A DNA stretch of 64,000 nt from Nitrospirae bacterium JdFR-86 (GCA_002011815.1 MTOV01000004.1:115514-179513), one strand, 5' to 3'. Counted from the first letter of the stretch, positions 41,382 to 60,675 are shown. Made by a program: numbers and translations. The notes: generated by a model from the letters alone, not told the origin.

Positions 41382-41801
41382 TTATTTCTTAGCAGAAATT
41401 CTGTTCCAGATTTCTTGAGATTGAAAATTTCTAACCAATTCAATTCTTATTTCGGAAGCGGTAGCACTAGACCGCACTGGCTGATCAACTAATTTGCATA
41501 GTTCTCTTAGTTGTTTTACAGTCAAGTTCTTTAAGTTATCAAGTAGTTTATCGGGATCATTTTTCATTTCTTTTAAGAGTTTAATATATTCCGAGTCGAC
41601 ATTTATTGCTTTAGAAGCCCTTCTCTTTTCCGGTGAGATATATGGGGCAGTGATAGAAAATTGAACCTTTCCACCTAACCGTTCTAGTTTTTGCACGTCT
41701 TCTTCTGAAAAGTATTGTAATAAAATTTGTTTCAATCTATTAGACACTGGAGTTCCTGCCTCGTGTATGAATTCATATTTAGGCACAGCGGTACCCTCCA
41801 A
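41382..41801 (-). CDS. Hypothetical 139-aa protein coupled to the ParA-like gene
   Basis: Overlaps the upstream ParA-like gene by 23 nt. Helical and charged, with no recognisable motif. Confidence 0.5.
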   Translation of the reverse strand: MEGTAVPKYEFIHEAGTPVSNRLKQILLQYFSEEDVQKLERLGGKVQFSITAPYISPEKRRASKAINVDSEYIKLLKEMKNDPDKLLDNLKNLTVKQLRELCKLVDQPVRSSATASEIRIELVRNFQSQEIWNRISAKK

Positions 41802-42816
41802 TTCTAGCTAATACGACATCCGCGAGAGATGATAAACATTCATCAACCGTTGGCTGACCTGAAGTTTTTTTGCTGAAGTCATACCTTGAAAACTTTGTCC
41901 CTGCTTCGCCTAAAAATCGTGCGATAACATCCAGCCTTGGGATGACGCCAATCAATGGATCAGAGCCTAATACTCTTTGTTCTTCTTTATCTAAGTCCGC
42001 CTGTATATTCCTTTTTAAGCGTGTTTCAGCGGATTGTTGGCTGTATACCTTGCCACCGCCTACTCCACCTGTCCGATTAATAGCATTCAATACATACCCA
42101 AGGAGTTTAGGCCTGTCAGAGGGTGGGACAAGCTTTACCCAACGCAATAATCGAGGCATTCCATATATCGAAATAGCATCAGGAATTGTAACAGCTAAAT
42201 AATAGCTACAAGCTCTTAACATAGCTTGTGTTAGAAACATTTTATTCGGTGGACAATCGACGATCACGTAATCATACTCACTGTATGCGTTGAGTAATTG
42301 CTTGCAATAAAGAAATAGTTCATCTACATGTCTTTTAGTGCCTGTAGCTAAACTTTGCGCAATTTGCATGTCTAACTCATCTACATTGAACGAACCTCGT
42401 ACAATAAAAAGATTGTCCGGGGCAACAGTATCCTTTACCTTGGTGACATATTTATCAAAATTTGTCTTGGCAATTTTTGCCCACTTGGATGGTTTAACTA
42501 AATTATATATTGTCAGTTCGGTTTTGCTTACCTCTTCAGGATCGAAGCCAAGCGCCAATGATAAACTACATTGTGGGTCAATATCAAACAATAGTACCTT
42601 TTTCTGTGTTTTTTCAGCCAAATAATATCCCAAGAGACAAGATACTGTGGTCTTGCCGACCCCACCCTTATAATTAACAACACATATCGATCCCCGATGC
42701 TTTTCAGCTCGTAGAGCATCAATTTTTAGTTTATTTTCCGAGCTAACGACCGGATTGAACGGACTAGCATCTTTTTTTTGGGGACTGTAGTCTTTCTTTC
42801 TTTTCTTTCTTGCCAT
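41779..42816 (-). CDS. ParA/MinD-superfamily ATPase with basic N-terminal extension
   Basis: Deviant Walker A VVNYKGGVGKTTVS, FDIDPQCSLS, VIVDCPPN. Confidence 0.8.
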   Translation of the reverse strand: MARKKRKKDYSPQKKDASPFNPVVSSENKLKIDALRAEKHRGSICVVNYKGGVGKTTVSCLLGYYLAEKTQKKVLLFDIDPQCSLSLALGFDPEEVSKTELTIYNLVKPSKWAKIAKTNFDKYVTKVKDTVAPDNLFIVRGSFNVDELDMQIAQSLATGTKRHVDELFLYCKQLLNAYSEYDYVIVDCPPNKMFLTQAMLRACSYYLAVTIPDAISIYGMPRLLRWVKLVPPSDRPKLLGYVLNAINRTGGVGGGKVYSQQSAETRLKRNIQADLDKEEQRVLGSDPLIGVIPRLDVIARFLGEAGTKFSRYDFSKKTSGQPTVDECLSSLADVVLARIGGYRCA

Positions 42817-43042: not shown

Positions 43043-43714
43043 CTATACGGGCTGGAAACGGGACTTGCTCCTCTGACATCCGTAGCAGAGCATTGCGCCT
43101 TGGAACCTGTCCATGAATCTAAGGCAATAATCAACTTCTTTTGGGGTCATTCGTTTGCCGCATTTGGAACAATGAACATCGCCGGCCTTGCCTAAATTTA
43201 TCCCGTCTGTGCTTGCCGCCTCGGCCAGGGCGACGAATTCATCAAGAAGCTGTTTCCTTCCCACAAGAGCTACACCGTTTTTCTTCGCGAGCTCCACTGC
43301 CTGGGACGTAAAATCGCTGTTCGATATCACAATTGCGGCGTCACATCCATAATACCCTTTGGCAGCCACTGCCTCCTGAACCGCTTTGACGCCAACCTTC
43401 CTGTTCCACCTTTTGGCTTGGACTACCTTTCTAACGCCGTCTTTCTCAATGACCAAGTCGCCGCCGAAATCACCCCTGTAAGGGGTCCTCTCTGTCTTAT
43501 AGCCCTTTCTTCGATAAATGGCCTCGACATACTGCTCAAAAGTCCGGCCGTCCATCTTGTCGATGTCGCCAATCCCGGCGCGGGCCAATTTGTCAAACCT
43601 TCTTCGATAAAAGTATCGTTTGATCAAGAGAAATGCAACAACTACCGCGAATAAGGCCAAGATAGGCAACAACATGGTCGGTGCCACTGTCTTTATGATA
43701 TTCAGACTATCCAT
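43043..43714 (-). CDS. Membrane-anchored Mrr-like restriction endonuclease domain protein with C-terminal zinc ribbon
   Basis: N-terminal TM helix; Mrr_cat pattern FEQYVEAIYRRKGY..GGDLVIEKDG..VVQAKRW..ISNSDFTSQA; C-terminal CSKCG..CYGC. Confidence 0.75.
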   Translation of the reverse strand: MDSLNIIKTVAPTMLLPILALFAVVVAFLLIKRYFYRRRFDKLARAGIGDIDKMDGRTFEQYVEAIYRRKGYKTERTPYRGDFGGDLVIEKDGVRKVVQAKRWNRKVGVKAVQEAVAAKGYYGCDAAIVISNSDFTSQAVELAKKNGVALVGRKQLLDEFVALAEAASTDGINLGKAGDVHCSKCGKRMTPKEVDYCLRFMDRFQGAMLCYGCQRSKSRFQPV

Positions 43715-44252: not shown

Positions 44253-44663
44253 TTATTCTGGCCGCTTCCTCATCCTTTCTGTCATGACCCTGACATGCTC
44301 GGCGAAATCAGGGCTGTATGAGATTTTGCCGTCTTCGACCGTGACCTTGGCCGCCGACCTTACGTATCCCGGCGTGGGTACCTCATCGAGAAATCTACCA
44401 TCCATCTCGCAGAGTATGTATATGTGACCCAGCCTTTGGGAGAGCTCAAGGAGAGCCTCTCTGTCCCTTTCGATTTCTAGGTCTCCGAACCAGATTTTCT
44501 TAGCCTTTGCATTGAAGATGTTGGCGTTGAATATCGTTGTGGGCTTTTTCATGCTTTTTGACGGATAGAGCATCCTTCCAGCAATCCCAAGCAATTTTTC
44601 AGCAACCCGGGATATCTTTGTAAATTTTTGATCTACCCAGGCAGATTTTTCTGTCTTATTCAT
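44253..44663 (-). CDS. Hypothetical 136-aa protein, last gene of the OB/HD operon
   Basis: 4-nt overlap with the upstream HD gene. No recognisable motif. Confidence 0.5.
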   Translation of the reverse strand: MNKTEKSAWVDQKFTKISRVAEKLLGIAGRMLYPSKSMKKPTTIFNANIFNAKAKKIWFGDLEIERDREALLELSQRLGHIYILCEMDGRFLDEVPTPGYVRSAAKVTVEDGKISYSPDFAEHVRVMTERMRKRPE

Positions 44664-45646
44664 ATCCCCACCTCGACAATCTCTCTCTGATGCGTTTTCT
44701 TGTGTTTCTTCTGGTATATTTCGGTATTAAGATATCTATCGTATGGACTCCAAGGGTTTTCAGGATTCGAGTGTTTCAGATGACAGTATAAGTGGTTCAA
44801 CTTTGCATCCATGTTTTCGATTAAATGGAGCATCAGTGCCTCAGGCGTAGCTGGTCTTACCGGACTGCCGTGCTCCAGCTCACCGTGATGAGAAAGGATC
44901 ATGTGTTTAAGTAGCATTGCCAATTCTTCCGGGAAACTATCGAGCCTTGATATCTTTTCATTGACCATGGAAAAGCCAAGAGTTACGTGTCCCAGGAGCT
45001 TGCCTTCTGTTGTGTATTCCCTTGCGATTTCGTAGTGCATTTCTCTGGTTTTCCCGATATCGTGCAGGAACGCACCTGTAAGGAGCATGTCCTTGTCGAT
45101 AAGCCCGGGATGCATATCAGCAATAAATGCTGCCTGGCACATGGTATTGACTGTGTGCTCAAGCAGTCCTCCAATGTAATTGTGATGTACGGAAATTCCA
45201 CCAGGTGTGGACAGGAAGTTTTCAAGGAAAACGGTATCTTCTAAAAAACTGTCCACGAGTTTTTTGCAGCTCGAATCCTTTATCAGGCTGATCTGTTCGA
45301 GCAGCTTTCTATGCCAATAATCAATGCCGCCCGGAACGATCTCAAGGAAGTCCTTGAGGTCGACCTCGTGTTTTTCAGCCATTCTTATCTTTTCGATTTC
45401 TATTGCCAAAGAGCCGTTCAGGATTTTTGTGATGCCTCTTACCTTCACGAATGATTTTTCTTTTAGCAGGGTAGCGGACTCTACTGGTTCGTTCCAGAGA
45501 TATCCTCTTATCCCTCCGGTTTTGTCGTGGAGATTAAGCACCAGGAAATGCCTCAGGTTTCTGCTTTGCCTGAGTTCCATAGATTCAAGGGCGAAGAATG
45601 TTGTTATCCTTTCGTTTGGTAATATATCTTTCCTCATCAGTTTCAT
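44660..45646 (-). CDS. OB-fold + HD-domain phosphohydrolase (YhaM-like 3'-5' exoribonuclease architecture)
   Basis: N-terminal OB pattern (LHDKTGGIRGYLWNE..VKVRGI), then HD motifs HHNYIGGLLEHT..AFLHDIGK..LSHHG. Confidence 0.75.
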   Translation of the reverse strand: MKLMRKDILPNERITTFFALESMELRQSRNLRHFLVLNLHDKTGGIRGYLWNEPVESATLLKEKSFVKVRGITKILNGSLAIEIEKIRMAEKHEVDLKDFLEIVPGGIDYWHRKLLEQISLIKDSSCKKLVDSFLEDTVFLENFLSTPGGISVHHNYIGGLLEHTVNTMCQAAFIADMHPGLIDKDMLLTGAFLHDIGKTREMHYEIAREYTTEGKLLGHVTLGFSMVNEKISRLDSFPEELAMLLKHMILSHHGELEHGSPVRPATPEALMLHLIENMDAKLNHLYCHLKHSNPENPWSPYDRYLNTEIYQKKHKKTHQREIVEVGI

Positions 45647-45885
45647 TTTTCTTTTCTCCTTTCTTCTTCACCTGAAATAAACTCTTTTACTGCATCTAAT
45701 GCGGTCAGTGGAATCAGAAATATCGGTATAAGTAGCAGGCAGCTTAACAACCACAATATCCTTTTCCAGCGTTTATCCATAAGCGAAGGGCATTTGCTTC
45801 TTAAATCTTCAGTGAGTCTCGGCAGAATGAAGAAGGAGGCTAAAACCCAACTCAAATAAATTATTACAAAGGGGAATAATCTCAT
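45643..45885 (-). CDS. Hypothetical small membrane protein (2 TM)
   Basis: 80 aa with two hydrophobic helices and 4-nt overlap with the HD gene. Confidence 0.5.
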   Translation of the reverse strand: MRLFPFVIIYLSWVLASFFILPRLTEDLRSKCPSLMDKRWKRILWLLSCLLLIPIFLIPLTALDAVKEFISGEEERRKEK

Positions 45886-45889
45886 TTTC

Positions 45890-46132
45890 TTACACCTCCT
45901 TTGCTGCCCTATAGGCTTTCTTGATCATTGTCCTCGTTACGAACTCCTTTGGGGCAATTCCTTGCTGGTTGAATATCTCATCGCCCACGATCTGAATCTT
46001 TCCGATATTTGCCTCCCCTGACCTTTCACTACCCGCTTCAAGCAGGATTTCCAAAAACCTTTTCCTCCTTGCCTCGTCAAGGCTCTTATAAAGGCTTTCG
46101 AAATAACTGCAGTCGTCCCTTCTGATGAACAT
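45890..46132 (-). CDS. Hypothetical 80-aa protein, first gene of the OB/HD operon
   Basis: GGAGG upstream. No recognisable motif. Confidence 0.45.
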   Translation of the reverse strand: MFIRRDDCSYFESLYKSLDEARRKRFLEILLEAGSERSGEANIGKIQIVGDEIFNQQGIAPKEFVTRTMIKKAYRAAKEV

Positions 46133-46292
46133 TTTCCCCTCCTTATGTCATTTAAAACAATAAAATATCATTCTAAATATAAATATAACATCCAAAATGG
46201 TATCTGTCAAGTCATTTTTTCATCCAGAATGAAATTTTTTGATTTTCTTTGACAAAATGGGGCTTTTTGTATAAATTATTCTTGGGCTAACT

Positions 46293-46493
46293 ATGATTAA
46301 GTGTCATCTGTCGAAACTGATGGGCGAGAGGAAGTTGAAAATCGCCAATGTTGCACGGGACATCGGCGTCCACAGAAACACTATTGCCCTCTTGTACTAC
46401 GAAAAAGCCAAGAGAGTTGACTTAGATGTTCTGGATAAATTATGTAAGTATTTAAGTTGCGAAATTTCGGACTTATTAGAGTATAGAGATTAA
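46293..46493 (+). CDS. XRE/Cro-type helix-turn-helix regulator
   Basis: 66 aa, KLKIANVARDIGVHRNTIALLY HTH. Divergent from the OB/HD operon. Paralogue at 60313-60519. Confidence 0.85.
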   Translation: MIKCHLSKLMGERKLKIANVARDIGVHRNTIALLYYEKAKRVDLDVLDKLCKYLSCEISDLLEYRD

Positions 46494-46617: not shown

Positions 46618-47352
46618 ATGAATGAAAACCTTTTAGTATCTCTTATAGGCCATACCATTACCCTCCCAGGACAGTTCGATGTCCCAGTTATACTGGAAGA
46701 TGTAAGGCTTCTCGGACCTGATAGCTCGGCTGGTTATGAATGTCGGGTGAGACTTCCTGACGGTACGCTGGAAGAAACGATTATCTCTTTATCGGAAGCA
46801 ACATCAATCATCGGTGTGGATCGAAAGCCTTCTGATTTAATACGACCGGTGGATTCTGAAAAACTTCGCCTTCTTATTGAGTCCACCCGTATTCGACTTG
46901 CCTATGTGCATGACCATCAATTTACTGTGAGCCTTTCTGGTATTCGTACACTTCCTCACCAAATCGAAGCTGTCTATCAAAAAATGCTATCACAGCCTCA
47001 GCTACGGTTCCTTTTAGCAGATGATCCCGGTGCGGGTAAGACCATTATGGTTGGTTTGCTTATCAAAGAGTTAAAACTACGAGAAGCCGTTGAGCGAATA
47101 CTTATTCTATGCCCGGCTCCTCTTACAATACAGTGGCAGGATGAAGGGCAGCTTGTGCGATTTACCATCAATGGATGGTATAAGGCCCAGCAGCTTGCCG
47201 ATACCTACTGGCTCTATGTGGTATGGAACCCGCTTGATAAAGAACCCGAAATTGTCCGTATATAGAACCCTGCTGTGAAGCTTGACCACGCAAAGCGGGA
47301 GATTGTAGCGGCGAGGGTTTTTGAGGTACCGGCTGAGGCGATACAGCATGTG
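46618..47352 (+). pseudogene. Internally deleted SNF2/DEAD-like helicase (N-terminal ~170 aa joined to the C-terminal ~45 aa, then in-frame TAG and 19 further tail codons)
   Basis: LPHQIEAVY..FLLADDPGAGKTIMVG..ILCPAPLTIQWQDE (motifs I/Ia) jumps directly to ..YWLYVVWNPLDKEPEIVRI. No motif II-VI is present. After TAG (47263-47265) the same frame continues NPAVKLDHAKREIVAARVFEVPAEAIQHV*. Confidence 0.65.
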
Positions 47353-47366
47353 TAGGTGGTTTGATG
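47290..47366 (+). repeat. Junction repeat A (helicase-tail half only), left edge of the cassette array
   Basis: GCAAAGCGGGAGATTGTAGCGGCGAGGGTTTTTGAGGTACCGGCTGAGGCGATACAGCATGTGTAGGTGGTTTG aligns by eye with the tail halves of repeats D, B and C. Confidence 0.75.
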
Positions 47367-48226
47367 TGAATAATAAAAGCAAGAAAGCAGAAATTAAAAT
47401 TATTAGGGAATTTTTAAATTTTAGGGGCTGTAAGGTTCTACGGATAATCCCGAATGAAAGACCTGATGCTATAGTAGTTATTGAAGAAGCAGGAAAGCGG
47501 AAAAAAGTCGGGATAGAGCATACTGAGTACCATGTTGATGCTCCGCCAGGCAAGCCTTCGTCAGGCAGAAAAGTTCACAGTTTTTGGCATCATGTCCGAA
47601 GCAGTATTCGTAGACGTGTAAGTCACCGTCCAATTTTGAAGCATATAACTGGGCTGGTTTCTCTTAAGGAAGATAACCATCCAAGACAATCACGAGCAAG
47701 AGATCTGGCCGAAGAGTTGGTCAAATTAGCATTAGAGCATATTAATGCTATCCCAAATGGTGAGCACAGAATAAACAATTTTTCGAATAAAAAATATCCA
47801 CTTTTAAGTAGATATGTCAAAAAAGTTATTCTATATGGTACAGGTTCTGCTTGCAATGTGTCATGGGGATGTGTGAACGCAAATGTTTCAGCTATTGGTG
47901 TTTCTGCGAAAGAGATAACCTTAATCATTCAGAACAAGACCAAGGAATTTCCAAAATATTGCTGGGGAAACGTAAAGGAACGCTGGCTTCTTATAAGCGC
48001 ATCCGGAAAAACTGTTTTTAATTTAGCCACGTCTCATCCAGAAAGAGTTGAGTGGGAAGCGAATACACTCCAGTCCGCCTGCCTTAGTTCTAACGTTGAC
48101 CGTATCTTCTTTTGGGATAGGACATTCAATTGGTATAAGGAGGTCTGGCCCGGTGCGCCTATTGTCCAACGCGAGTGGAGGCCTGAAAAGATATACAAAC
48201 ACGAGACTAACTATGAAAGAGAATGA
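47348..48226 (+). CDS. Cassette 1: hypothetical ~292-aa protein (start uncertain)
   Basis: Long clean ORF. The first 9 codons of the track ORF lie in repeat A, so I prefer the ATG at 47348. A possible nuclease-like stretch (ERPDAIVVIEEAGKRKKVGIEHTEY) is not diagnostic. Confidence 0.55.
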   Translation: MCRWFDVNNKSKKAEIKIIREFLNFRGCKVLRIIPNERPDAIVVIEEAGKRKKVGIEHTEYHVDAPPGKPSSGRKVHSFWHHVRSSIRRRVSHRPILKHITGLVSLKEDNHPRQSRARDLAEELVKLALEHINAIPNGEHRINNFSNKKYPLLSRYVKKVILYGTGSACNVSWGCVNANVSAIGVSAKEITLIIQNKTKEFPKYCWGNVKERWLLISASGKTVFNLATSHPERVEWEANTLQSACLSSNVDRIFFWDRTFNWYKEVWPGAPIVQREWRPEKIYKHETNYERE

Positions 48227-48230
48227 TCCT

Positions 48231-48305
48231 CCAGCCAATGACATTAGTGCTGAAGTGTCGGATAAGATTATTGCAGTAAGATTTTTTGAAAACGATATAG
48301 CAAGG
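48231..48305 (+). repeat. Junction repeat D (short methylase-5' part + helicase-tail part)
   Basis: ..ATTAGTGCTGAAGTGTCGGATAAGATTATTGCAGTAAGATTTTTTGAAAACGATATAGCAAGG reads ISAEVSDKIIAVRFFEN. Confidence 0.7.
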
Positions 48306-48325
48306 AGAAATAGTTAATAGTTTCT

Positions 48326-50035
48326 ATGAAGTTCTCTAAACTAATAATAAAGAACTTCCGCTCCATAGGATCAGAAGGGTTGGAGATTAATTTTCCAAAA
48401 GATCGTAATCTCACTGCCATTGTCGGTGCTAATGCCTCAGGAAAAACAAATGTTCTCTCTGCACTTGGTATTGTATTAGGCATGTATCCTTTCAGCAGGT
48501 TTTCTCCAGAAGATACTGATTTTTTTAGCAAGAAATCTGAGACTGAGCTCCTAATAGAGCTTTATTTAGATCCCCCAATTGTTGATCATGATGTTTATCG
48601 TAAAGGATATACAATTGCAGGATTTCGCTATCGTGCAGCCCGATACAAAGTTGGAGAACGAAAGGGAACACTCCGTGATGAGCATTACTGTTTTGACGAA
48701 AATGGAAACACTATACTTAAACCACAAAGGATATTTCGAAGAAAAAGCCAGCCAGATGATGGTGTTGATAACACCCCTAAGCCTATTCTCGTCTCGGATC
48801 AAGCTTGGAAATTGGGAGACCTTTTTTATCTTGATCCCCCAACCCTCGAACGCTTTTTTGATAAAACTACAGGGTGGAGCCCACTTGGACGTTTATTTGA
48901 GATATATCGGGATGATTTTGAAGCAGACCATAACGTTTATTCTCATGATGGAAAAACAACAATGACATCTAAAGAGGCATTCGAGAAATTTTCTCGTAAT
49001 CTTGCTGGAATTCTTCGTACAACAAAGCTTTCATATATTGAAACTGGATTGTCTACTCGAATCAGAGAATATTTAGGCAATACTTCCGACCAACCATTAC
49101 GTGTAGAATTTTCTTTACCTTCTCATAAGGAACTGTTTGAACGCTGGGTTGCTCTACAAATTTCTGAGCATTCTGGACTTCCAGCACTTCCTATTGAACG
49201 TCTTGGTTCGGGTTACCGAGCTTTACTGCGCTTAGCCGTTCTTGAAACACTACTGGATATGAGAGAGGGTGAGCACACTTCCATTCTGCTGATAGAAGAG
49301 CCTGAAATGTATCTTCATGTGCACTTAAGAAGATATTTCTATCAAGTTCTGAGAAGATTAGCAGAAAGAGGTCATCAAATTATTTACACAACACATTCTC
49401 CCGAATTTATTGATCTTGCTGAGCCTCATGAAATCGTACGCCTGCATCGAAAGCCTGGTGATTCGACCATTTCAAAGCAAGTTGCAGTAAGCACAAAATT
49501 AGATTTCAGGCGAGTTAAACAAAAACTCAGAAGAATGGGAAATGAAGAAGTTGTCTTTGCTAATCATGCTATATTGACCGAAGGACAAGATGACAAAGGC
49601 ATTATTGAAGAATTGTTGGTGCGCAGAGGGGTTGACCCCGATGTCCACAGTATCTCGATTATAAATTGTGACGGGACAGGCCAGATAAAAGATTACATCC
49701 ATCTGTGTTCCGAATTAGGCGTGGATTTTTATGTTGTTCATGATAGAGACGATGACAGCAATAAAGACATTAAAAAGCGCAATGATCAGATTGCTGGGGC
49801 GGTATCAGAAGCTAATCAATCAAATCCATCCTTACATGTATATAACCCTACTCTGGAAGCTACAATGGGAACAGAGAAGAAAAAGGGAAATTTAGACCAT
49901 CTCCTTGAACTCCTCGGAGATAAAAGTTATGAAGACATCAGAACTACATTTCCAGACTTAATAAAACCGATAGAAGAGTTTGTTAAAAGTCGAGGATTGA
50001 AGATTGAAGCAAAGTTTGGGGAAAGAGATGATTGA
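48326..50035 (+). CDS. Cassette 2: OLD-family ATP-dependent nuclease (ABC-type ATPase + TOPRIM)
   Basis: KLIIKNFRSIG..AIVGANASGKTNVLSAL Walker A, ILLIEEPEMYLH Walker B, C-terminal TOPRIM ILTEGQDDKGIIEELL..VVHDRDDD. Confidence 0.8.
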   Translation: MKFSKLIIKNFRSIGSEGLEINFPKDRNLTAIVGANASGKTNVLSALGIVLGMYPFSRFSPEDTDFFSKKSETELLIELYLDPPIVDHDVYRKGYTIAGFRYRAARYKVGERKGTLRDEHYCFDENGNTILKPQRIFRRKSQPDDGVDNTPKPILVSDQAWKLGDLFYLDPPTLERFFDKTTGWSPLGRLFEIYRDDFEADHNVYSHDGKTTMTSKEAFEKFSRNLAGILRTTKLSYIETGLSTRIREYLGNTSDQPLRVEFSLPSHKELFERWVALQISEHSGLPALPIERLGSGYRALLRLAVLETLLDMREGEHTSILLIEEPEMYLHVHLRRYFYQVLRRLAERGHQIIYTTHSPEFIDLAEPHEIVRLHRKPGDSTISKQVAVSTKLDFRRVKQKLRRMGNEEVVFANHAILTEGQDDKGIIEELLVRRGVDPDVHSISIINCDGTGQIKDYIHLCSELGVDFYVVHDRDDDSNKDIKKRNDQIAGAVSEANQSNPSLHVYNPTLEATMGTEKKKGNLDHLLELLGDKSYEDIRTTFPDLIKPIEEFVKSRGLKIEAKFGERDD

Positions 50036-50042
50036 CAATAGG

Positions 50043-50155
50043 AAACTTATAGAGATTATCTTCCTAATTCAGAGCATTATTAGTGCTGAGGAGTCGAAGG
50101 AACTTGTTGCGGTAAGGTTTTTTGAGATACTGGCGGATGTGATACAGCAGTTTGG
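50043..50155 (+). repeat. Junction repeat B (methylase-5' part + helicase-tail part)
   Basis: Reads KLIEIIFLIQSIISAEESKE|LVAVRFFEILADVIQQ in one frame. The first half aligns with 54038-54091, the second with repeat A. Confidence 0.8.
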
Positions 50156-50175
50156 TATGAATACAGGAGTATAAA

Positions 50176-52323
50176 ATGAATAATATCAAAAAAGGATCTA
50201 AAACACACAACTTGCTTTATGATACTCCTCTTCAAGTGCCTGAGCAGGACCGACTTGGAGTGGCTAAATTTTCCAAAATTTTGGCTGATGCAATATTAAA
50301 AATGGACGCCGAGGAAGGATTTGTCTTTGCACTAAATGGTCCTTGGGGAAGTGGAAAAACGACCACAATCAATTTTGTTCTTCATTATCTGAAGCAGCAA
50401 ACTCATAATGAAATAGTTATAGTACGTTTTAATCCGTGGTGGTTTTCAGGGCGAGAGCAATTACTCCAGCACTTCTTTCGGCAGTTCCGGACAGTTTTAG
50501 AGAAAAATGTTACAAAAAACCTGATGAAGATAGGTAAGAAACTTGAACATCTAGCAAACATTCTTGATCCTGCTTTTCAAAAAATCGGTGTTTCGTCAAG
50601 AAGCATTGCAGCTACAATGAAAAAAGATATATTTGAAGTACGTAACTCAATAGATTCGATGCTTCAGAAACAAAGCGTCCGCATATTAGTAGTCATTGAC
50701 GATATAGACAGGCTGTCAACCCAAGAAATACGTCAGATATTCCAGCTTGTAAAAGCAGTTGCTGATTTTCCTAAAACAATATATTTCTTAGCTTTTGACC
50801 GTAATGTAGTCATCAATGCTCTTAAGGAAGTTCAAGGATTAGACGGAGAAGCTTATTTAGAGAAAATAGTTCAAGCTCAGTTTAATTTGCCCTATCCGGA
50901 TAGAACGAGCCTTCGGCGCCTTCTCTTTGAGCTTCTTGATGAGGTCATTTTAGATACTCCGGAAGACAGATGGGATAGTACTGAGTGGGGAAATCTGTAC
51001 TGGGACGGTATTGACCCGTTTATACAAACACCGCGTGATATCAAACGATTCATTAACGCCCTGAGGCCTACTTATCCAGTTGTGAAGGAAGAGGTTAATC
51101 CTGTAGATTTCATTGGCATTCAAGCCCTTCGGATATTTGTACCGGAAATATACGACTTTATAGCTACAAGTAAAGACTTACTCGCTGGTGAAAGTAATAG
51201 CCGTGACTTCTATGAGGCAAAAGATGCGTATAGAAATTTTTTTGAATCTGTCATTGAAAGACTTCCTGAAAAAAAGCGTGAGCCAGTAAAGGGCATGATG
51301 AAAAGACTGTTTCCCAAATGGTCAACCGTATTTGGTGGTGCTTCTTATGGCACAAATTGGTTAGAGAGTTGGAGGCGTGAACTACGTGTGTGCAGTCCAG
51401 ATATATTCGACCGATATTTTATGCTTACGGTTCCACCAGGAGAAATCTTTTCAGCAGAGATGCAAGCTATTCTTGAATTGGCAAGTGACCCTCAGGCTTT
51501 TTCTTCTGAGCTTGTTCGCCTCTCTAAAGAACATAGACCTGATGGTACTACCCGTCTTCGTGTATTCTTGGAACGAATGCTGGATTTTACTGAGAAGGAT
51601 ATACCGGAAGAGCATATAGAACCAATTTTGCGCGCAATTTATACAATTGGAGACCAGCTTTATATAGAAAGTGATAGGGTCAGTATGCTCGATGACGGAA
51701 ACGACATGCGGCTGCTCCGCATTACATATAGATTACTTAGAAGACTTCAAACACAAGAACAGCGGTTCGATATGCTCAGCAAGATGTATAAAGAGGGTAA
51801 GGCTCTATTTTTAATAGTGCGAGAAATGACCTTTCTGGGTATTGAACATGGAAAATATACCAACAAACAACCGGAAGAGCCTGAGGAGAAACGGACTGTA
51901 AGTGCCGAACATTTATCTCAATTGGAAACGCTTGTTTTACAGAAAATACGTGATGCTGCAAAAGAAAATACGCTCCAAAAAACTCCCGAACTTGGACGTG
52001 TGCTATACCGTTTTTCAGACCTGGGTACAGAAGAGGAAGTTAAAGAGTACGTGTCAGGTCTTATTAAGAATGATGAAGGACTGTGCGATTACCTTGCCGG
52101 ATTTCTTTGGAAAAGCCACTCTCATACATTGGGCGATCGAGTCGAACGACGTACATGGAGAATTAGTGTTGATTTTGTTCAAAAATTTATAGATGGAGAT
52201 GCGGCAAACCTATTGCCGCGTTGTCAAAAGCTTCTTAAGGATCAACCAAACTGGCTAAAGGATAGAAGAAAAATCGCTATTGAAACGTTTATACAAGAAA
52301 TCACTAATCCAGAAGTCAGATAA
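50176..52323 (+). CDS. Cassette 3, gene 1: KAP-family P-loop NTPase
   Basis: FVFALNGPWGSGKTTTINFV Walker A, ILVVIDDIDRL Walker B, and the size and layout typical of KAP NTPases. Confidence 0.75.
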   Translation: MNNIKKGSKTHNLLYDTPLQVPEQDRLGVAKFSKILADAILKMDAEEGFVFALNGPWGSGKTTTINFVLHYLKQQTHNEIVIVRFNPWWFSGREQLLQHFFRQFRTVLEKNVTKNLMKIGKKLEHLANILDPAFQKIGVSSRSIAATMKKDIFEVRNSIDSMLQKQSVRILVVIDDIDRLSTQEIRQIFQLVKAVADFPKTIYFLAFDRNVVINALKEVQGLDGEAYLEKIVQAQFNLPYPDRTSLRRLLFELLDEVILDTPEDRWDSTEWGNLYWDGIDPFIQTPRDIKRFINALRPTYPVVKEEVNPVDFIGIQALRIFVPEIYDFIATSKDLLAGESNSRDFYEAKDAYRNFFESVIERLPEKKREPVKGMMKRLFPKWSTVFGGASYGTNWLESWRRELRVCSPDIFDRYFMLTVPPGEIFSAEMQAILELASDPQAFSSELVRLSKEHRPDGTTRLRVFLERMLDFTEKDIPEEHIEPILRAIYTIGDQLYIESDRVSMLDDGNDMRLLRITYRLLRRLQTQEQRFDMLSKMYKEGKALFLIVREMTFLGIEHGKYTNKQPEEPEEKRTVSAEHLSQLETLVLQKIRDAAKENTLQKTPELGRVLYRFSDLGTEEEVKEYVSGLIKNDEGLCDYLAGFLWKSHSHTLGDRVERRTWRISVDFVQKFIDGDAANLLPRCQKLLKDQPNWLKDRRKIAIETFIQEITNPEVR

Positions 52324-52326
52324 GGA

Positions 52327-52746
52327 ATGAATATAGATGATTGCATAGATGCCGCGGAGAGAAACCTTTACGATGCTCGGAGATATCTTGAGAGCGGCGA
52401 AGCTGTCAATTGGGTGCCCGATAGTCTGTCCACCGCTCTGCTTCGGGCTATGGAGGCGTGGCTAATGGCGCATGGCCATAAATGGAATCGAGGTCAAGGA
52501 TGGGAAGGCTTACGTTCTGCTTTTATTGATGTAGCCCCGGAAAAGTTACGCTCTGAGGTTATGTACTGCTTAGGCAAGGCCACTTTTTTAGAATATGACC
52601 TTGAGGGAGGTTTTGAGCATAAAGAACCTATCCTACCGTTGAAGGAATGGAAGAAAGAAGCGTACGAATGTTTGGAAAAAATGGAGAAGGTTGTCAGGCA
52701 CCTACTTGCAGACACGAGATTGAACATATTATCTAAGGATAAGTGA
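52327..52746 (+). CDS. Cassette 3, gene 2: hypothetical 139-aa all-helical protein
   Basis: Starts 4 nt after the KAP stop. No diagnostic motif; any HEPN-like call would be a guess. Confidence 0.5.
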   Translation: MNIDDCIDAAERNLYDARRYLESGEAVNWVPDSLSTALLRAMEAWLMAHGHKWNRGQGWEGLRSAFIDVAPEKLRSEVMYCLGKATFLEYDLEGGFEHKEPILPLKEWKKEAYECLEKMEKVVRHLLADTRLNILSKDK

Positions 52747-52755
52747 TACCCGAAA

Positions 52756-52877
52756 ATGGTTGACGCAAACGCCTTATAGAAGGCTATCTTCCAATCAAGG
52801 TCATGAGTGTAGGGGCGTCGAGAGAGGTTGTCGTAGTAAGGTTTTTGAGATACCAGTGGAGGTGATACAGTGGTTTG
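52756..52877 (+). repeat. Junction repeat C (methylase start codon and 5' part + helicase-tail part)
   Basis: ATGGTTGACGCAAACGCCTTATAGAAGGCTATCTTCCAATCAAGG..GCGTCGAGAGAGGTTGTCGTAGTAAGGTTTTTGAGATACCAGTGGAGGTGATACAGTGGTTTG reads (frameshifted) M..RLIEGYLPIKVMSVGASRE|VVVVRF. Confidence 0.8.
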
Positions 52878-52881
52878 TGTA

Positions 52882-53970
52882 ATGAAGAATTCTCCAAGTG
52901 CGAATAAAGAAAGTAAAAAATACTCGCATCGGGTATTCATTTTAGGTGCGGGTTTTTCGCATCATCTGAGCTGCAAGGAGTTTCCCTTAGGCAATGAACT
53001 CTCTGAAATTATCCGCCGTTTAGAAATCCCTGAACTCGAACGCCATTATCAGGAGTGTAATCACGAACAGCCCCACCTGGAAGAAATTTTAACAAAGCTT
53101 GAGCTGGATCGTTACATTCATCAAAAGAGGAAAGATGAGATTAAAAAACTAATTTTTCTGAAGGTTCAGGAAAGGCTAACAGTAAAAAGCTTAGGTAAAA
53201 TAAATCTTGATTCTTCCAGAGAGCTTGTCAAAAATCTGTTTAGCGATAATGATGTTATCATCACGACCAACTATGATTTACTCCTCGACCATCTCTTGGA
53301 TGCCGCTGGCCTTTGGAGCCCGTTAGGCAATGGCTACGGCAATACCATAGAAGCAGATAATTTTAAAAGCGAAGAAATAAACCAAAAGCTAAAAAACATT
53401 CGACTTCTCAAAATTCATGGTTCTTTCAACTTTTTCTTAGAGCCTCTTGTATCTGGCGGCATGTCCAAATTGATTAGCGTCTTGGTCAATGGCCAGCATC
53501 CAGATTATCTGGATCGAGATGACCTATTCCAAAGCGCAAAAAATACCCACCTTAATGTCGACAAGAATGCTAAAAATCTCCGGGCGATAGTGTTGCCAAC
53601 ATATATTAAGCCTTTTGCTCAAAACCGCACAACCATGAAGATGTGGCACGAGGCAGGTGAAGCCATGGAAAACGCATCTGTTGTAAACATTATTGGTTAT
53701 AGCTTTCCCGAACCAGACCAAATGATGAGTTTTCTTATGAGTTGTCCCGATGCGAATGAATTTTTCAAGAAAGATAATCGAAAGCTGAAAATTAATATTT
53801 TGAATACCAAAAATGAGATCGATAGAATCAAAGATCATATTAAGCGGTGTCTTCGGGCCAATCCGCATGAACATATTGACTGGCGTGAGTTTGTATTGGA
53901 CAGTAATAATCCTAATCAAGCGTATGAGAATCTTGTTAAGTCTCTGAAAGGGCAATTTAATGATTCCTAA
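52882..53970 (+). CDS. Cassette 4: SIR2-like (SIR2_2 type) protein
   Basis: VFILGAGFS, VIITTNYDLLLDHLL and LKIHGSFNF, the three signature blocks of SIR2_2 proteins. ATG at 52882 preferred over GTG at 52870. Confidence 0.7.
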   Translation: MKNSPSANKESKKYSHRVFILGAGFSHHLSCKEFPLGNELSEIIRRLEIPELERHYQECNHEQPHLEEILTKLELDRYIHQKRKDEIKKLIFLKVQERLTVKSLGKINLDSSRELVKNLFSDNDVIITTNYDLLLDHLLDAAGLWSPLGNGYGNTIEADNFKSEEINQKLKNIRLLKIHGSFNFFLEPLVSGGMSKLISVLVNGQHPDYLDRDDLFQSAKNTHLNVDKNAKNLRAIVLPTYIKPFAQNRTTMKMWHEAGEAMENASVVNIIGYSFPEPDQMMSFLMSCPDANEFFKKDNRKLKINILNTKNEIDRIKDHIKRCLRANPHEHIDWREFVLDSNNPNQAYENLVKSLKGQFNDS

Positions 53971-54013
53971 TGAATGCAAACAATTGGCTAAGGTAGATTC
54001 CAAATAGTGAAGA

Positions 54014-54313
54014 ATGAAGATGAAAAATGATAAAAGACTCATAGAAGACTATCTTCCGATTAAGGCTATAAGTGCTGAAGCGTCGAGGGAGAAATCTGTA
54101 AAAAAGGGGCATATCTCTACACCTCATCTCTAGTGGGCAAGGCGGCCGCTTATGGCCTGCCGAGCTGCCGTCTATGGCGCGCTTGTGCCTGCTTCCAGAT
54201 TTGTTCCTGAGAACGGATCAGATAACAAAAAACAAAGCCTTGGAAGAGCCAATGCGGCTAAGTTCATGAGCGTCTTTGCAAATATCGCGGGACCCGTATT
54301 GCAATTTCCATAG
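54014..54313 (+). pseudogene. 5' remnant of a DUF1156-type DNA methyltransferase gene (junction half E), with in-frame TAG and truncation
   Basis: MKMKNDKRLIEDYLPIKAISAEASREKSVKKGHISTPHL*WARRPLMACRAAVYGAL. The conserved LWWARRP has TAG (54131-54133) in place of the first W. The ORF ends after 100 codons with no methylase catalytic region. Confidence 0.65.
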
Positions 54314-54409: not shown

Positions 54410-55174
54410 ATGGCGGTTAAAAAAGAATTCAAAATTCGAAACATAAATATTACTGAAATTCATTACCATAGGAATCTACAAATAGCCAACATAGAAAAGC
54501 TTAAAACGTTATTTAATAATGTTGACCTCAACCTAGTCAAAACCTTTTATCCGCCTTTCGTTGTTGAAACACCTAAAGGTTTCTCGCTTTTGGGTAGGCA
54601 TTGGGTGCTTGCGTTAATCATCGCCAAAAATCCAAGGCTTTCCGGAAAAGCTTCCGAGGAAGCTTATAACATACCCGTAATAGTAGTAGATCCTGCTTCG
54701 GTAGAACAAATATTAGAACTTGATAGATTAGAGATAGAATTCTTCTTAAAGTTTAATACCCCAAATAAGGCTTCAAGGTCAACTCTTAATAGGTTAAAAA
54801 GTAGAAAAGCAGGACGTATATGTCCATTCTGCCACGGAGTTTTAAGACGTCCACGGGACAAGGCTGATAGGACGAAAGAAGTTGGCTATATCATTCATTG
54901 CGAAAACAATACAAAGACCAGCACGGGTAGAAAATGTGATTTCGAACTAATCCTAACAGATATTGAGTATAACTTATTCATAAACTATAAACTTCCGATA
55001 TCTAAGATATTAGTCCCCATAAGCAAAAATTGTCCTAAATGTGGAAATAGACTCTATAAAAGAATTGTCCACAAATCCGATGAGATAAGGATATATGAAC
55101 GATGCAGGAATAAGATTTCTTCAAATGGAGGATGTGACTATAATACCTTTATAAAAAATATTATAGAGAAGTGA
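54410..55174 (+). CDS. ParB-like N-terminal domain protein with two topoisomerase-type zinc ribbons
   Basis: The ParB/Srx-like stretch PPFVVETPKGFSLLGRHWVLALIIA, then CPFCHG..HCEN..CDF and CPKCGNRLYKR..RCRNK..GCDY. Confidence 0.55.
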   Translation: MAVKKEFKIRNINITEIHYHRNLQIANIEKLKTLFNNVDLNLVKTFYPPFVVETPKGFSLLGRHWVLALIIAKNPRLSGKASEEAYNIPVIVVDPASVEQILELDRLEIEFFLKFNTPNKASRSTLNRLKSRKAGRICPFCHGVLRRPRDKADRTKEVGYIIHCENNTKTSTGRKCDFELILTDIEYNLFINYKLPISKILVPISKNCPKCGNRLYKRIVHKSDEIRIYERCRNKISSNGGCDYNTFIKNIIEK

Positions 55175-57798
55175 AATCCTTTTCCATAACTAACATTATT
55201 GGAAAACTCTATAGTGTTACCCTGACGCCACAAGGTAAAGAAATATCTCTATATGAGTCTAACATAGACGAGCTTGTTAAATATATTCAAAATTTATTTT
55301 CACCCGAAAGAAACGGTCCAACAATATCAGAGAATGATATAAAAACTTGTATCTTTTTCTTCCTGCGACTGGTAAATACCCCTACTAGTCTTAGAGGGGC
55401 TCTTCTTATAAAACCGTGCTTAATATACCTGACAAAATCTGCTTGCGAAGAAGCTCGAGTATCCCAAAATGCTTCTGATGAAATTATGTCCTTTCTAATT
55501 ATGTGGTTCAAGGCATTGGAAAACTCTCCTGATGCAGCAAGTATTTATCTCAAAAAACCCGATATAAAAGAATCTCCTCTTTTTAGATTTCACATAGATG
55601 CTTACACTTATTCAAAAACTGACGACGCTACCCTACCCTCTTTTTACAGAGCTTATGCTTATATTCTTCACAAAAAGATAAGACTAAACGAAAGGCAAAA
55701 CATTGATTATGACACTCATCTTTCATACATCAGAGCTGCTCGATACTTTTTCAAGTATATGCCAGATGATATAAAGTCTTTAACGAACCACCCTCAAGTA
55801 ATACCAGAAAACTACATTGATCTATTTGCGCGGCGATTAGATATCAATGAAAAAAAGAACTACGATGGTCCTCTGTCTAGCCTCGCAATAACTTATAAGA
55901 AAAAACTAAAAGCGTTAATCATCGGCAAGACAATTAAACCACATCCACATGAAGGAGCAAGATTTACACGAAAAATCAAAGAAGGTTTTCCTCAAAATGT
56001 ACCAGCAGACGGGACTCTTACCATATTGACCCCCAAAATACACACGCCAGATATTGCTCAACGTATTTATCGCCTTGAAGCAGAAAAAGCACTGGAATAT
56101 GAAACGGATGAAGAAGTAATCAACTGTGAAAAGTTCGAAGCAGATTATGAACTGCAAATGTATGAACTACCTGAGAAAGATTTAATTACCCCCCAAAAAC
56201 CTTCTTTGAAAAAAGGATGGGAAGATTTAATAAATCTGAGAAGTTTTAACTTCTATTGGGACTCAAATTACCTAAATCTCTTTCACTATGCAGTTATGTA
56301 CCAAACAATGATTAAACTCTGGAACACATCCTCATTTGATAATGCTAACCTGACTTTCATTGAGATCCTTATCCATACTGGTATACACCCCAAAAAGTTG
56401 ATTGACTTAACAACTACCATTGAAAATACAGATAAAGAATTCATTCAACTTCAGAAAGTTGAAGAAAGGTATCATATATTAATCGAATCTATAGTCAAAT
56501 ACAGAAGGACGATTGACCATCCAGCTTGTTTTAAAACCTCCTCCACAGTTTGGGTTCCACTACCTGATAGGCTAAGCAAATTACTCTCCCACCTTCCAAT
56601 ACATCAAAGCCCATTCGTGTTTAGTTATGTTACTTCCAGAAATAGAATAAAACGGCTCTCATTACTGGATGTCGAGAATTATATAGAAAAAAATATCAAC
56701 AATGCATATCCTGAATATGAGCTAAAAATCACATTAGCAAAAATTTACAGGTCATTTTTGCCGCTTTATCATCACCGTTTTGGATTAGACCCTCTTGTTT
56801 GTACACTTATAAGCGGGGAAGATCACCATAGACTTTACAGATCACAACTGCATTATGTCTATATTGAACATAAACGACTAGCTAAAGAGTATTTGGAAAC
56901 TCATAACAAGGTAACTTCTGCTATTAAAGAAAACCTTTACAACAGCATACAATTTTCTTTTCTTGATAAAAATAGATTCTCTCAAGAGGAAATAAATAAA
57001 TTTATTACACACAATCGCGCAATAGAAAGCCTTGACAAGATTTCAGTCCCACAGAAGCACGATTTTGGTTATGGTTCACCTCTTATATGCAAAAAAGAAT
57101 ATATAATTAATCTTGTTTCGTCTTTAAGGCATGCGATAATAAATGAGACTAACCCTTTAAAAAGGCATAATTTCTATTCTATATATGTCTATTTATGCCT
57201 TCAATTTTCTACATGCTTAAGGCCTAGGAATAACCCAGACATCCTATGGGCGGATTATAATGAACACTCAAATGTGATAGCAATATGCGATAAACAAAGC
57301 GTTAAATATAATGAAGAGAGATTTCTTCCTATCACAACGACATTAAAGACGCTTCTCACACACTTACATAAAGGTTTTAGACCGCTACGATTACATCTTG
57401 CAGAATATTATTACCCACCTTTAATAAAATTTGAAACGGACAAAATCTTCTTTTTCATAGAGGAGAAAACCGGAAAGATTATTGATTTTACTCTTAAAAA
57501 ACTGAAAGAGCACCTCAAAAATATTGGTATTGACTATTCATTGCCATTGAACATGCCTCGGCATTTTTTGAGAAATTATTTATATCACTTAAACCTTTCA
57601 AATGACCTAATAGATTATTGGATGGGCCACCAACATATAAGTAAAGAATTGTTAAACAGTTCTTCCTCTGTACTTGCAGAAAATGCAATTGACACTGCTT
57701 TAACGGAAATTGACTCCTTACTCAATGAACTTGGCTTTACAGTTTTAGACTATCTTCCGAGAAATATTAAATGGAATGCGTCAAAGATAACAGATTAA
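55171..57798 (+). CDS. Large (875 aa) tyrosine-recombinase-like protein lacking an obvious nucleophilic Tyr at the canonical position
   Basis: The C-terminal ~230 aa carry CLRPRN (Arg I), KQSVKYNEERFLPI (Lys), PRHFLRNY (HxxR) and WMGHQH, but the following ISKELLNSSSSV has no Tyr. GTG start overlaps the upstream stop (GTGA). Confidence 0.6.
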   Translation: MKSFSITNIIGKLYSVTLTPQGKEISLYESNIDELVKYIQNLFSPERNGPTISENDIKTCIFFFLRLVNTPTSLRGALLIKPCLIYLTKSACEEARVSQNASDEIMSFLIMWFKALENSPDAASIYLKKPDIKESPLFRFHIDAYTYSKTDDATLPSFYRAYAYILHKKIRLNERQNIDYDTHLSYIRAARYFFKYMPDDIKSLTNHPQVIPENYIDLFARRLDINEKKNYDGPLSSLAITYKKKLKALIIGKTIKPHPHEGARFTRKIKEGFPQNVPADGTLTILTPKIHTPDIAQRIYRLEAEKALEYETDEEVINCEKFEADYELQMYELPEKDLITPQKPSLKKGWEDLINLRSFNFYWDSNYLNLFHYAVMYQTMIKLWNTSSFDNANLTFIEILIHTGIHPKKLIDLTTTIENTDKEFIQLQKVEERYHILIESIVKYRRTIDHPACFKTSSTVWVPLPDRLSKLLSHLPIHQSPFVFSYVTSRNRIKRLSLLDVENYIEKNINNAYPEYELKITLAKIYRSFLPLYHHRFGLDPLVCTLISGEDHHRLYRSQLHYVYIEHKRLAKEYLETHNKVTSAIKENLYNSIQFSFLDKNRFSQEEINKFITHNRAIESLDKISVPQKHDFGYGSPLICKKEYIINLVSSLRHAIINETNPLKRHNFYSIYVYLCLQFSTCLRPRNNPDILWADYNEHSNVIAICDKQSVKYNEERFLPITTTLKTLLTHLHKGFRPLRLHLAEYYYPPLIKFETDKIFFFIEEKTGKIIDFTLKKLKEHLKNIGIDYSLPLNMPRHFLRNYLYHLNLSNDLIDYWMGHQHISKELLNSSSSVLAENAIDTALTEIDSLLNELGFTVLDYLPRNIKWNASKITD

Positions 57799-60519: not shown

Positions 60520-60675
60520 AACCCTTAATAATTTACACTAAAAATGCCTTCAAATCAAATAACTTCACAAAATGTCATTCTGAATAACAAAATCGCTTGA
60601 CAAATGTCTTTTTTAAGGTTATAATATCATTGAAAGTGACATTTAGGCATTTTTAATAGCAAAAAGAAGTTTAAC

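Follow-up and report, generated by a model that had tools for sequence, protein, structure and literature searches.

Four defence-type gene cassettes stand in a row in a 64,000-nucleotide stretch of the genome of Nitrospirae bacterium JdFR-86 (GCA_002011815.1 MTOV01000004.1:115514-179513; hereafter the window, with positions counted from its first letter), where they fill the interval between the remnants of two genes of an Hma defence system, the helicase gene hmaA and the methylase gene hmaB. Here, we report that neighbouring cassettes are separated by short chimeric sequences in which the start of hmaB is fused in frame to the end of hmaA. The finding is more general than the window, as scars of this kind are present in many other metagenomes and loci. 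We consider it probable that they were left by illegitimate, microhomology-guided recombination between Hma alleles, which stacked modules consisting of an hmaA 3' end, a cassette and an hmaB 5' end in the embedding site of an Hma locus whose core is now dead.

The Hma system was named by Payne et al. (2021; PMC8565338) and comprises the SNF2 helicase HmaA, the DUF1156 methylase HmaB and the DUF499 ATPase HmaC. It has since been given the name 'DUF499-centred BREX-related type 1' (PMC12839542). Of 1,485 Hma systems, 62.7% contain embedded genes; with few exceptions these share the orientation of the hma genes, many of them are defence systems, and their published hotspot lies between hmaA and hmaB (bioRxiv 10.1101/2024.01.29.577857). 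In that study embedded genes served as a means of discovery, loci in which hma genes were duplicated or pseudogenes were present were left out, and no more than three embedded genes were admitted; the mechanism of embedding is not addressed in it beyond the idea of a 'genomic sink', and the word 'recombination' is absent (bioRxiv 10.1101/2024.01.29.577857). A sequence-only reading of the window had held that no described system has this junction structure. For the placement of cassettes between helicase and methylase this does not stand, since that is the published Hma hotspot. For the hmaB-5'/hmaA-3' scars the claim holds within the literature searched: we found no description of them in Hma/BREX-related and wider work, our coverage being incomplete and priority uncertain. 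Hence the cassette-between-helicase-and-methylase architecture is known, and what appears to be new is the scar architecture, together with its implications for the assembly and survival of such arrays.

The cassettes are separated by fusions of hmaB and hmaA

Five junction sequences, J0 to J4, delimit the four cassettes (Table 1). They were aligned with MAFFT, and pairs were compared by local alignment against 500 shuffles each. J2 and J3 agree at 88 of 118 positions (z=22.7). The alignments of J3 with J4 (46/60 identical, z=16), J2 with J4 (45/58, z=11.6), J0 with J2 (37/46, z=12.3), J0 with J3 (z=8.3) and J1 with J2 (37/47, z=10.6), J1 being the weakest junction, likewise lie far above the shuffled controls. 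J0 and J4 show no significant similarity to each other (z=1.5), which is expected if J0 holds the helicase half only and J4 the methylase half only. The sequence-only reading had placed five related sequences here, two of them half junctions at the ends and three of them chimeras inside, and all of this was borne out.

A codon-registered view, with which the alignments agree, resolves J1, J2 and J3 as in-frame fusions of hmaB codons 1-24 with the last ~17 codons of hmaA. The switch from one gene to the other lies in all three directly after the codons for S-R/K/D-E/K, in line with the single switch point proposed earlier. The three fusions are preserved to different degrees. J2 is intact, its ATG overlapping the stop of cassette 2 (ATGATTGA) and its TAA lying 1 nucleotide (nt) ahead of the ATG of cassette 3; in J1 ~23 nt of the methylase half are gone; and J3 carries two 1-nt frameshifts, one near the start and one in a TTTTTT run.

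The cassette genes fit tightly between these sequences. Their starts overlap the stop of the helicase half or lie at most 9 nt from it (ATG 47348 ahead of TAG 47353 in cassette 1, ATG 9 nt past the TAA in cassette 2, TAA-A-ATG in cassette 3, TAATG in cassette 4), and their stops overlap the start codon of the methylase half or lie 10-50 nt ahead of it, so that the compact layout on one strand that had been described before is confirmed. Because starts and stops abut the stubs in this manner, the unit can be defined as hmaA-3' stub, cassette and hmaB-5' stub, equipped with the translational-coupling signals that it would have had as the only cassette of an Hma locus.

The array has an identical architecture in two independent assemblies, one from JGI (L001) and one from Logan (L002), and is therefore no assembly artefact. 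A repeat search of the whole window (seed 12, minimum length 40) returned nothing, since divergence puts the junction repeats beyond the reach of methods with exact seeds.

Table 1. Features of the Hma relic, the cassette array and its immediate flanks in the window (a slash in a peptide marks the switch from hmaB to hmaA; aa, amino acids; ORF, open reading frame)
Feature	Position	Strand	Description
HTH_26 (XRE-type) regulator gene	46293-46493	+	directly 5' of the hmaA remnant; Pfam HTH_26 2.5e-22
hmaA (SNF2 helicase) remnant	46618-47355	+	PADLOC HmaA 4.6e-36 on aa 45-177; Pfam SNF2-rel_dom, NOV_C
J0	47290-47355	+	hmaA 3' end only (AKREIVAARVFEVPAEAIQHV, stop); stop TAG 47353-47355, overlapped by the cassette-1 ATG at 47348
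Cassette 1	47348-48226	+	292-aa protein, family unassigned
J1	48212-48317	+	most eroded chimeric scar, MKENDPPANDISAEVSDK/IIAVRFFENDIARRNS, stop; 34-aa ORF (P0191) overlapping the cassette-1 stop
Cassette 2	48326-50035	+	OLD/GajA-like ABC-ATPase-TOPRIM fusion, 569 aa
J2	50028-50174	+	intact 48-aa chimeric ORF, MIDNRKLIEIIFLIQSIISAEESKE/LVAVRFFEILADVIQQFGMNTGV, stop; called as a 48-aa gene in L001
Cassette 3, gene a	50176-52323	+	PifA-like KAP-family P-loop NTPase, 715 aa
Cassette 3, gene b	52327-52746	+	139-aa protein; start 3 nt past the PifA-like gene
J3	52756-52882	+	chimeric scar, ..KRLIEGYLPIKVMSVGASRE/VVVVRF(-1)FEIPVEVIQWFV, stop; TAA overlaps the cassette-4 ATG (TAATG)
Cassette 4	52882-53970	+	SIR2-like protein, 362 aa from ATG 52882
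J4	54020-54091	+	first 24 codons of the hmaB remnant
hmaB (DUF1156 N6-methylase) remnant	54020-54313	+	Pfam DUF1156 twice; PADLOC HmaB 2.9e-07
Recombinase block	54410-60308	+	context, outside the array: 254-aa Zn-ribbon protein and tyrosine-recombinase-like ORFs of 875 aa and 845 aa

Equivalent scars occur in intact and decayed Hma loci

An exhaustive HMMER search of 1.84 billion protein representatives, made with a profile built from the junction peptides of the window, gave 169 matches at E<=1e-3. Among the 143 short proteins newly returned, 30 are chimeras in which the N-terminus of HmaB is followed by the C-terminus of HmaA. These 30 are distinct, as each represents a separate 50%-identity cluster; being ORF-based, the search is biased towards intact ORFs. 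The junction unit for which a search had been suggested is thus found in at least 30 distinct chimeric short ORFs, in intact as well as in decayed Hma loci, and the solo helicase-X-methylase loci that had been proposed as a further target exist elsewhere alongside multi-cassette versions.

Three intact loci illustrate the arrangement. In L083, hmaA is followed by a DUF4062/HATPase cassette, a chimeric ORF, an SLFN_AlbA_2 cassette, hmaB and hmaC, the chimera consisting of 73 aa of HmaB and 85 aa of HmaA. L091 has the order hmaA, cassette, chimera, cassette, hmaB. L170 reads hmaA, ORF6N, hmaA-3' stub, a homologue of cassette 1, hmaB-5' stub, HD cassette, hmaB, hmaC; the homologue is 66% identical to the window protein, and a gene of the cassette-1 type therefore carries both kinds of stub, in its own copies, in a second genome. 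Decayed arrays without working hma genes were found as well (L084-87/L090, L088, L089, L097, L107, L109, L150 and L157), those of L084-87/L090 in a neighbourhood of metabolic genes. The other large Hma clade has hmaB-5' stubs only (L047, L063), helicase stubs not being seen there.

Other searches gave no further chimeras. A word-index protein search with a 41-aa synthetic chimera, a method insensitive for short queries, returned seven truncated HmaB N-termini and no chimera, and tblastn of the chimera against plasmids found only ordinary hmaB starts on six cyanobacterial plasmids. Scans for AEASRE[IV]V in viral contigs and for AEASRE[IV]V[AST] in metagenome contigs gave 15 and 140 pattern matches, respectively, none of which was confirmed, and a broader two-pattern scan of viral contigs yielded nothing. 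Young SRE/IV junctions with the exact scanned peptide are thus absent from those viral and metagenome collections.

Some variant stub arrangements were observed in addition. L063:8524-10187 holds three copies of a 194-nt hmaB 5' segment, 84-96% identical and spaced by 764 and 706 nt, which enclose small genes for PIN-toxin-like and antitoxin-like proteins, upstream of the real hmaB, in a stub-only form of stacking. In the 1-kb gap of an intact hmaA-hmaB pair, L094:5199-5958 (= L095:1471-2230) contains two hmaA-3' stubs in degenerate form that enclose nothing recognisable as a cassette, and these may be a leftover of cassette loss. The hmaA-3'/hmaB-5' matches in L147:2526-6293 form a perfect inverted duplication on both strands, probably an assembly palindrome. 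Finally, a GC-rich palindrome of ~33 nt (CCTGCCTGCCGCG...GCAGGCAGG) is present in nearly the same form at L005:10061-10093 and L089:~1785-1817, and also in P0155. It occupies the same position inside the hmaB-5' stub in two unrelated contigs and looks like a REP/MITE-like (repetitive extragenic palindrome or miniature inverted-repeat transposable element) or terminator hairpin that travels with the stub.

Breakpoints are scattered and the shared switch point lies on a microhomology

Across loci, the hmaB part of the chimeras ends after codon 10 at the earliest and codon ~190 at the latest, and the hmaA part begins 14 to ~110 codons ahead of the stop. Such scatter implies that there is no universal site and that many independent illegitimate events took place. 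The opening 58 codons of hmaB were compared with the closing 58 codons of hmaA from the same locus for exact matches of at least 6 nt, and the commonest was the in-frame pair SRE(K) in hmaB and KRE(I) in hmaA, which occurs in 11 of 35 loci and, offset by one codon, in another four. The SRE/IV switch of the window coincides with this microhomology and hence needs no dedicated recombinase. The same junction is present in P0138/L084, P0143, P0215 and L089. It is found with two clades of hmaA, reading IVAARF in the window and in P0138 and IIRRYEIP in P0215, which speaks more for repeated use of the microhomology than for one common ancestry. Another recurring class, KSVR/IQNP or KSVR/IHDP (P0139, P0176, P0217, L091), also sits on a shared dipeptide.

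The L083 chimera allowed the origin of its stubs to be assessed. Its hmaB half differs from the resident hmaB with a synonymous divergence (dS) of 1.38 and a non-synonymous divergence (dN) of 0.07, and the corresponding values for its hmaA half and the resident hmaA are 0.51 and 0.11. As the differences are mostly synonymous, these stubs were imported from another functional Hma allele and do not stem from a recent local duplication.

Features of a dedicated recombination site were not found. The DNA of the five window junctions, when folded, has no excess of secondary structure over shuffles (z -1.34 to +0.90), an Rfam scan of the junctions gave no match, and neither a recombinase nor an integrase gene lies near the intact arrays L083 and L170 within loci of 14-16 kb.

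A stacking model and its alternatives

We infer the following course of events and kind of recombination, and with them a possible part of the linker ORFs in translational coupling. Each cassette would once have stood alone between one hmaA and one hmaB and would retain from that state the last ~17 hmaA codons, whose stop would be translationally coupled to the cassette start, and the first ~24 hmaB codons. Head-to-tail stacking would then have joined the hmaB 5' end of one copy or allele illegitimately to the hmaA 3' end of another, whether through unequal exchange, through illegitimate recombination of incoming DNA anchored by homology or through a circularised fragment inserted in the Campbell manner, and every stacking event would leave an hmaB-5'/hmaA-3' chimera. 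Long scars would later be trimmed by deletion, preferentially across the direct repeat CGNGARA. This 6-7-nt repeat, in frame in both genes (CGN GAR A; S-R-E-K in hmaB, K-R-E-I in hmaA), would be the favoured deletion or crossover point and would thereby account for the recurrent SRE/IV junction. The stubs would offer 50-500 nt of homology to other Hma alleles, through which cassettes could be gained, lost or swapped by ordinary homologous recombination, and the Hma core genes would have died after four cassettes had accumulated. To judge from their reading frames, the short linker ORFs may persist by handing ribosomes from cassette to cassette. The sequence-only reading had offered two routes to the tandem layout; recombination between helicase-X-methylase alleles is retained here, be it by insertion of circles or by unequal exchange, and a single defined site is not supported across loci in view of at least 30 chimeras with scattered breakpoints.

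Several observations weigh against this model. A census of 45 loci of the window's Hma clade in which the hmaA end and the hmaB start are intact on one contig found 16 without a cassette, 24 with one or more cassettes and no scar, and five with scars, one of these five having been picked for its scar and two being duplicates. Scars are therefore present in 5 of the 29 cassette-bearing loci in which both core genes are intact, and most embedding leaves none, cassettes presumably being swapped through the flanking genes. Neither two complete Hma systems in tandem nor a circular form was seen among ~170 loci, and no cassette presence/absence polymorphism was found at the window locus, where two near-identical contigs were compared. 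The window's three junctions share a single switch point and a VRFFE motif and could derive from one ancestral junction and not from three events. Moreover, among the nine junctions detected independently of ORF calling, seven keep the frame (binomial P=0.008), or 5 of 7 if the window is counted once (P=0.045); together with the tight overlaps of starts and stops this bias hints that the linkers may be kept by selection, which a pure scar view does not predict. As to the census, 3 of the 5 longest hmaA-hmaB intervals contain scars, and we take scars to mark stacking, ordinary single-cassette embedding leaving none.

The alternative that comes closest supposes a local tandem duplication of the segment from the hmaA 3' end to the hmaB 5' end by unequal sister-chromatid exchange, after which one cassette copy was replaced by homologous recombination with foreign Hma alleles. 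A duplication with its ends in hmaA and hmaB would yield exactly an hmaB-5'/hmaA-3' junction with both core genes intact, a microhomology at the join would fit, and the three copies of the hmaB 5' segment in L063, 84-96% identical over 194 nt, speak for it. No array contains two related cassettes, however, and the L083 stubs have diverged widely from the resident genes at synonymous positions, their dN/dS being low. We judge this explanation unlikely; since gene-conversion tracts during cassette replacement could also bring in foreign stubs, it is a variant of the stacking model and not a clean alternative. We strongly doubt an integron-like process in which a site-specific recombinase inserts circular cassettes at one hmaB-5'/hmaA-3' site. 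The array does resemble an integron in its compact, promoterless cassettes read from one end on the same strand with short repeats between them; the three internal junctions of the window share their switch with P0138/L084, P0143, P0215 and L089, modules with stubs on both sides exist (L170), and the window contains two large tyrosine recombinases just downstream. Yet the window repeats are fragments of protein-coding genes, and their DNA, which folds no better than shuffles, lacks an attC-type hairpin. Breakpoints elsewhere are spread over ~190 hmaB and ~110 hmaA codons, so that junction positions vary across Hma loci with no fixed crossover point, and the one shared switch coincides with the commonest microhomology. 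No recombinase gene precedes cassette 1 of the window, the intact arrays L083 and L170 are without IntI or any other recombinase gene in their 14-16 kb, the downstream recombinase block differs in GC content and starts at the hmaB break as an inserted element would, and the intact AEASRE[IV]V junction was not found in viral or metagenome contigs. With neither attC structure, nor an associated IntI, nor a fixed crossover, the window array is not an integron.

It seems very unlikely to us that the chimeric unit is primarily a functional linker or leader ORF, or an mRNA element, that couples translation of the cassettes or regulates them. Intact short ORFs that start on the stop of the upstream cassette and end abutting the next start (window J2, L083, L084, L088, L089) and the in-frame bias among 7 of 9 junctions are what such a function would lead one to expect. 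On the other hand, J1 has lost part of its sequence and J3 is frameshifted twice, the lengths and breakpoints of the chimeras vary more than tenfold, the unit has neither an RNA structure nor an Rfam family, most multi-gene Hma inserts do without it, and the ORF search behind most of the examples favours intact ORFs. Chance similarity or an assembly artefact, for which only the short length of the repeats speaks, is refuted by z-scores of 10-22 against shuffles, by the second assembly with the same architecture and by dozens of analogous chimeras in other datasets, and its probability is practically nil.

Beyond the stacking model, Hma loci might act as cassette-capture platforms, with the highly conserved last ~20 hmaA codons and first ~25 hmaB codons as paired recombination substrates and a preferred in-frame crossover at the shared CGNGARA (R-E) motif, whose modules circulate between Hma loci of different lineages, possibly as circles, and whose mini-ORFs are retained for handing translation on from cassette to cassette. 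This proposal is speculative and, on balance, unlikely. If it is true, such a platform would be the counterpart of an integron, reserved for immune genes and either independent of a recombinase or driven by host recombination.

For one widespread system, the scars provide physical evidence of the way in which defence genes become nested inside other defence systems. They indicate that cassettes move with stubs of the flanking core genes and that a stack grows where the beginning of the methylase gene from one allele is joined to the end of the helicase gene from another, and the arrays can outlast their host Hma system. The short conserved stubs can serve as sequence tags that delimit cassettes even at loci without a surviving hma gene, such as L084-87 and that of the window. 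Systematic tagging by stubs would nominate defence candidates, in the window the 292-aa and 139-aa proteins. The stacking model also gives clear predictions that are testable by transformation experiments and long-read population data.

Relation to other modular loci

Among known systems, Hma loci with embedded genes share with the window the flanking genes, the position between hmaA and hmaB, the orientation and the types of gene (ABC-ATPase/TOPRIM, SIR2 and other defence families). The window differs from them in its dead core, in its four cassettes with five genes and in the hmaB-5'/hmaA-3' scars between these.

The nearest mechanistic analogy, by virtue of homology stubs, would seem to be the arrays of orphan toxin-immunity modules that reportedly lie downstream of rhs and cdiA. 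There, too, tandem variable modules would stand behind stubs of the main gene, stub homology would serve for swapping and activation, and modules would be imported horizontally. The window array does not belong to this class: the rhs/cdiA stub is on one side and comes from the gene that the module completes, whereas stubs of two genes flank each module in the window, and the rhs/cdiA modules consist of a C-terminal toxin domain and an immunity gene, whereas each window cassette is complete and autonomous and has a start of its own. In the immigration control region of E. coli, restriction loci show cassette-like allelic variation between conserved flanking genes. The likeness, as far as the analogy carries, would be variable defence content exchanged by homologous recombination in conserved flanks; the apparent difference is that there one allele is replaced by another, with no scars or tandem stacks.

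The four cassettes

The description of the cassettes as defence-type in the sequence-only reading is upheld for three of the four, which match OLD/GajA, PifA and SIR2 models. Lying between hma genes and in the same orientation as these, they correspond to embedded cassettes as described for Hma. Cassette 2 is recognised by Pfam AAA_15, AAA_21 and OLD-like_TOPRIM and by the PADLOC models Old (8.6e-43) and GajA (8.7e-35). The first gene of cassette 3 matches Pfam KAP_NTPase (9.6e-65) and, over residues 11-687 of the protein, PADLOC PifA (2.8e-116); for the 139-aa protein encoded behind it no family was found in Pfam, PADLOC and further family-profile searches. Cassette 4 matches PADLOC SIR2 (1.2e-14) and, slightly under the cutoff, Pfam SIR2_2 (6.1e-05). 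An exact-sequence look-up of this protein gave no record.

The protein of cassette 1 has no match in Pfam, PADLOC, NCBIfam or PHROGs; 17 homologues were found. Its N-terminus forms an alpha-beta-beta-beta-alpha unit with an invariant P-D...E, which weakly suggests a PD-(D/E)xK-like nuclease. An AlphaFold2 model (predicted local distance difference test score, pLDDT, of 76.5) had no significant match in the PDB. A 61%-identical homologue occurs outside Hma, at L171:4013-4873, beside an AEP-TOTE/DEAD helicase gene and an HsdM_N fragment, and the family is thus present in a second, defence-like neighbourhood. Apart from the cassette-1 relatives, which came from a separate search, tblastn of the window cassettes against all fetched loci found no close relative.

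All cassette ORFs appear intact, and the five genes, which the hmaA and hmaB remnants enclose, share the + strand. Their GC content at third codon positions varies from 0.29 to 0.46, a range consistent with separate origins. Promoter-like sites occur at chance frequency only, and no terminators were found between the cassettes, the single terminator-like site, within the cassette-4 gene, being fewer than in shuffles. With one strand, overlapping starts and stops and no internal terminators, the array reads as one operon.

The Hma relic and its surroundings

The window locus is a relic of an Hma system, that is, of a helicase-methylase-ATPase system belonging to DUF499-centred BREX-related type 1, and not a working member. 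In the hmaA remnant, aa 1-~176 are joined to the last ~66 aa, a NOV_C-type C-terminus, ~935 codons having been deleted internally (aa ~177-1110). When HmaA of L170 was compared with the window by tblastn, aa 1-225 and 1111-1176 were matched and nothing else. There is also an in-frame TAG at 47263-47265, and the remnant, recognisable as hmaA, cannot be functional. The hmaB remnant retains aa 1-~98 in one frame with a nonsense change of TGG to TAG at 54131-54133; tblastn of the L170 HmaB matched aa 1-91 only, and the N-terminus of the remnant is 72-90% identical to many HmaB proteins across phyla. The DUF499 ATPase gene hmaC is absent: with the L170 HmaC as query, tblastn found nothing anywhere in the window. 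The in-frame TAGs in both remnants are read as ordinary pseudogene decay. Remnants similar to the 215-aa hmaA remnant of the window were seen in L014:2284-2772, a 162-aa fusion of the hmaA N- and C-termini, and in L088:1121-1477, a 118-aa NOV_C piece; given this resemblance, it seems that Hma systems commonly decay through an internal deletion in hmaA.

Upstream of the HTH_26 regulator gene a promoter-like site lies at 46249-46277, in a region where such matches occur at chance frequency. Downstream of the array, the recombinase block begins at the hmaB break, has a GC content of 0.34-0.35 as compared with 0.39-0.47, and contains two large tyrosine-recombinase-like ORFs whose reading frames overlap. 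These score 46.8 bits with the XerA/integron-integrase model against a cutoff of 220 and are thus far under curated cutoffs. The block is an unusual recombinase element and probably the mobile element that truncated the Hma core or followed that truncation, and we read it as linked to the death of the core and not as the recombinase of the array.

A divergent pair of an HD/OB-fold gene and an HTH_26 gene is present in two copies of inverted orientation (44660-46493 and 60313-61320), which bracket the entire array plus the recombinase block. The two HTH_26 copies are 79% identical, and the second HD copy is a 214-aa remnant that is 41-51% identical to the first. A classical integrase follows the second copy at 61625-62785. 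Just upstream, on the minus strand, lie genes for a protein with an Mrr_cat restriction-endonuclease domain (43043-43714) and a ParA/AAA_31 ATPase (41779-42816); as these adjoin it, the Hma relic sits in a wider defence/mobile island.

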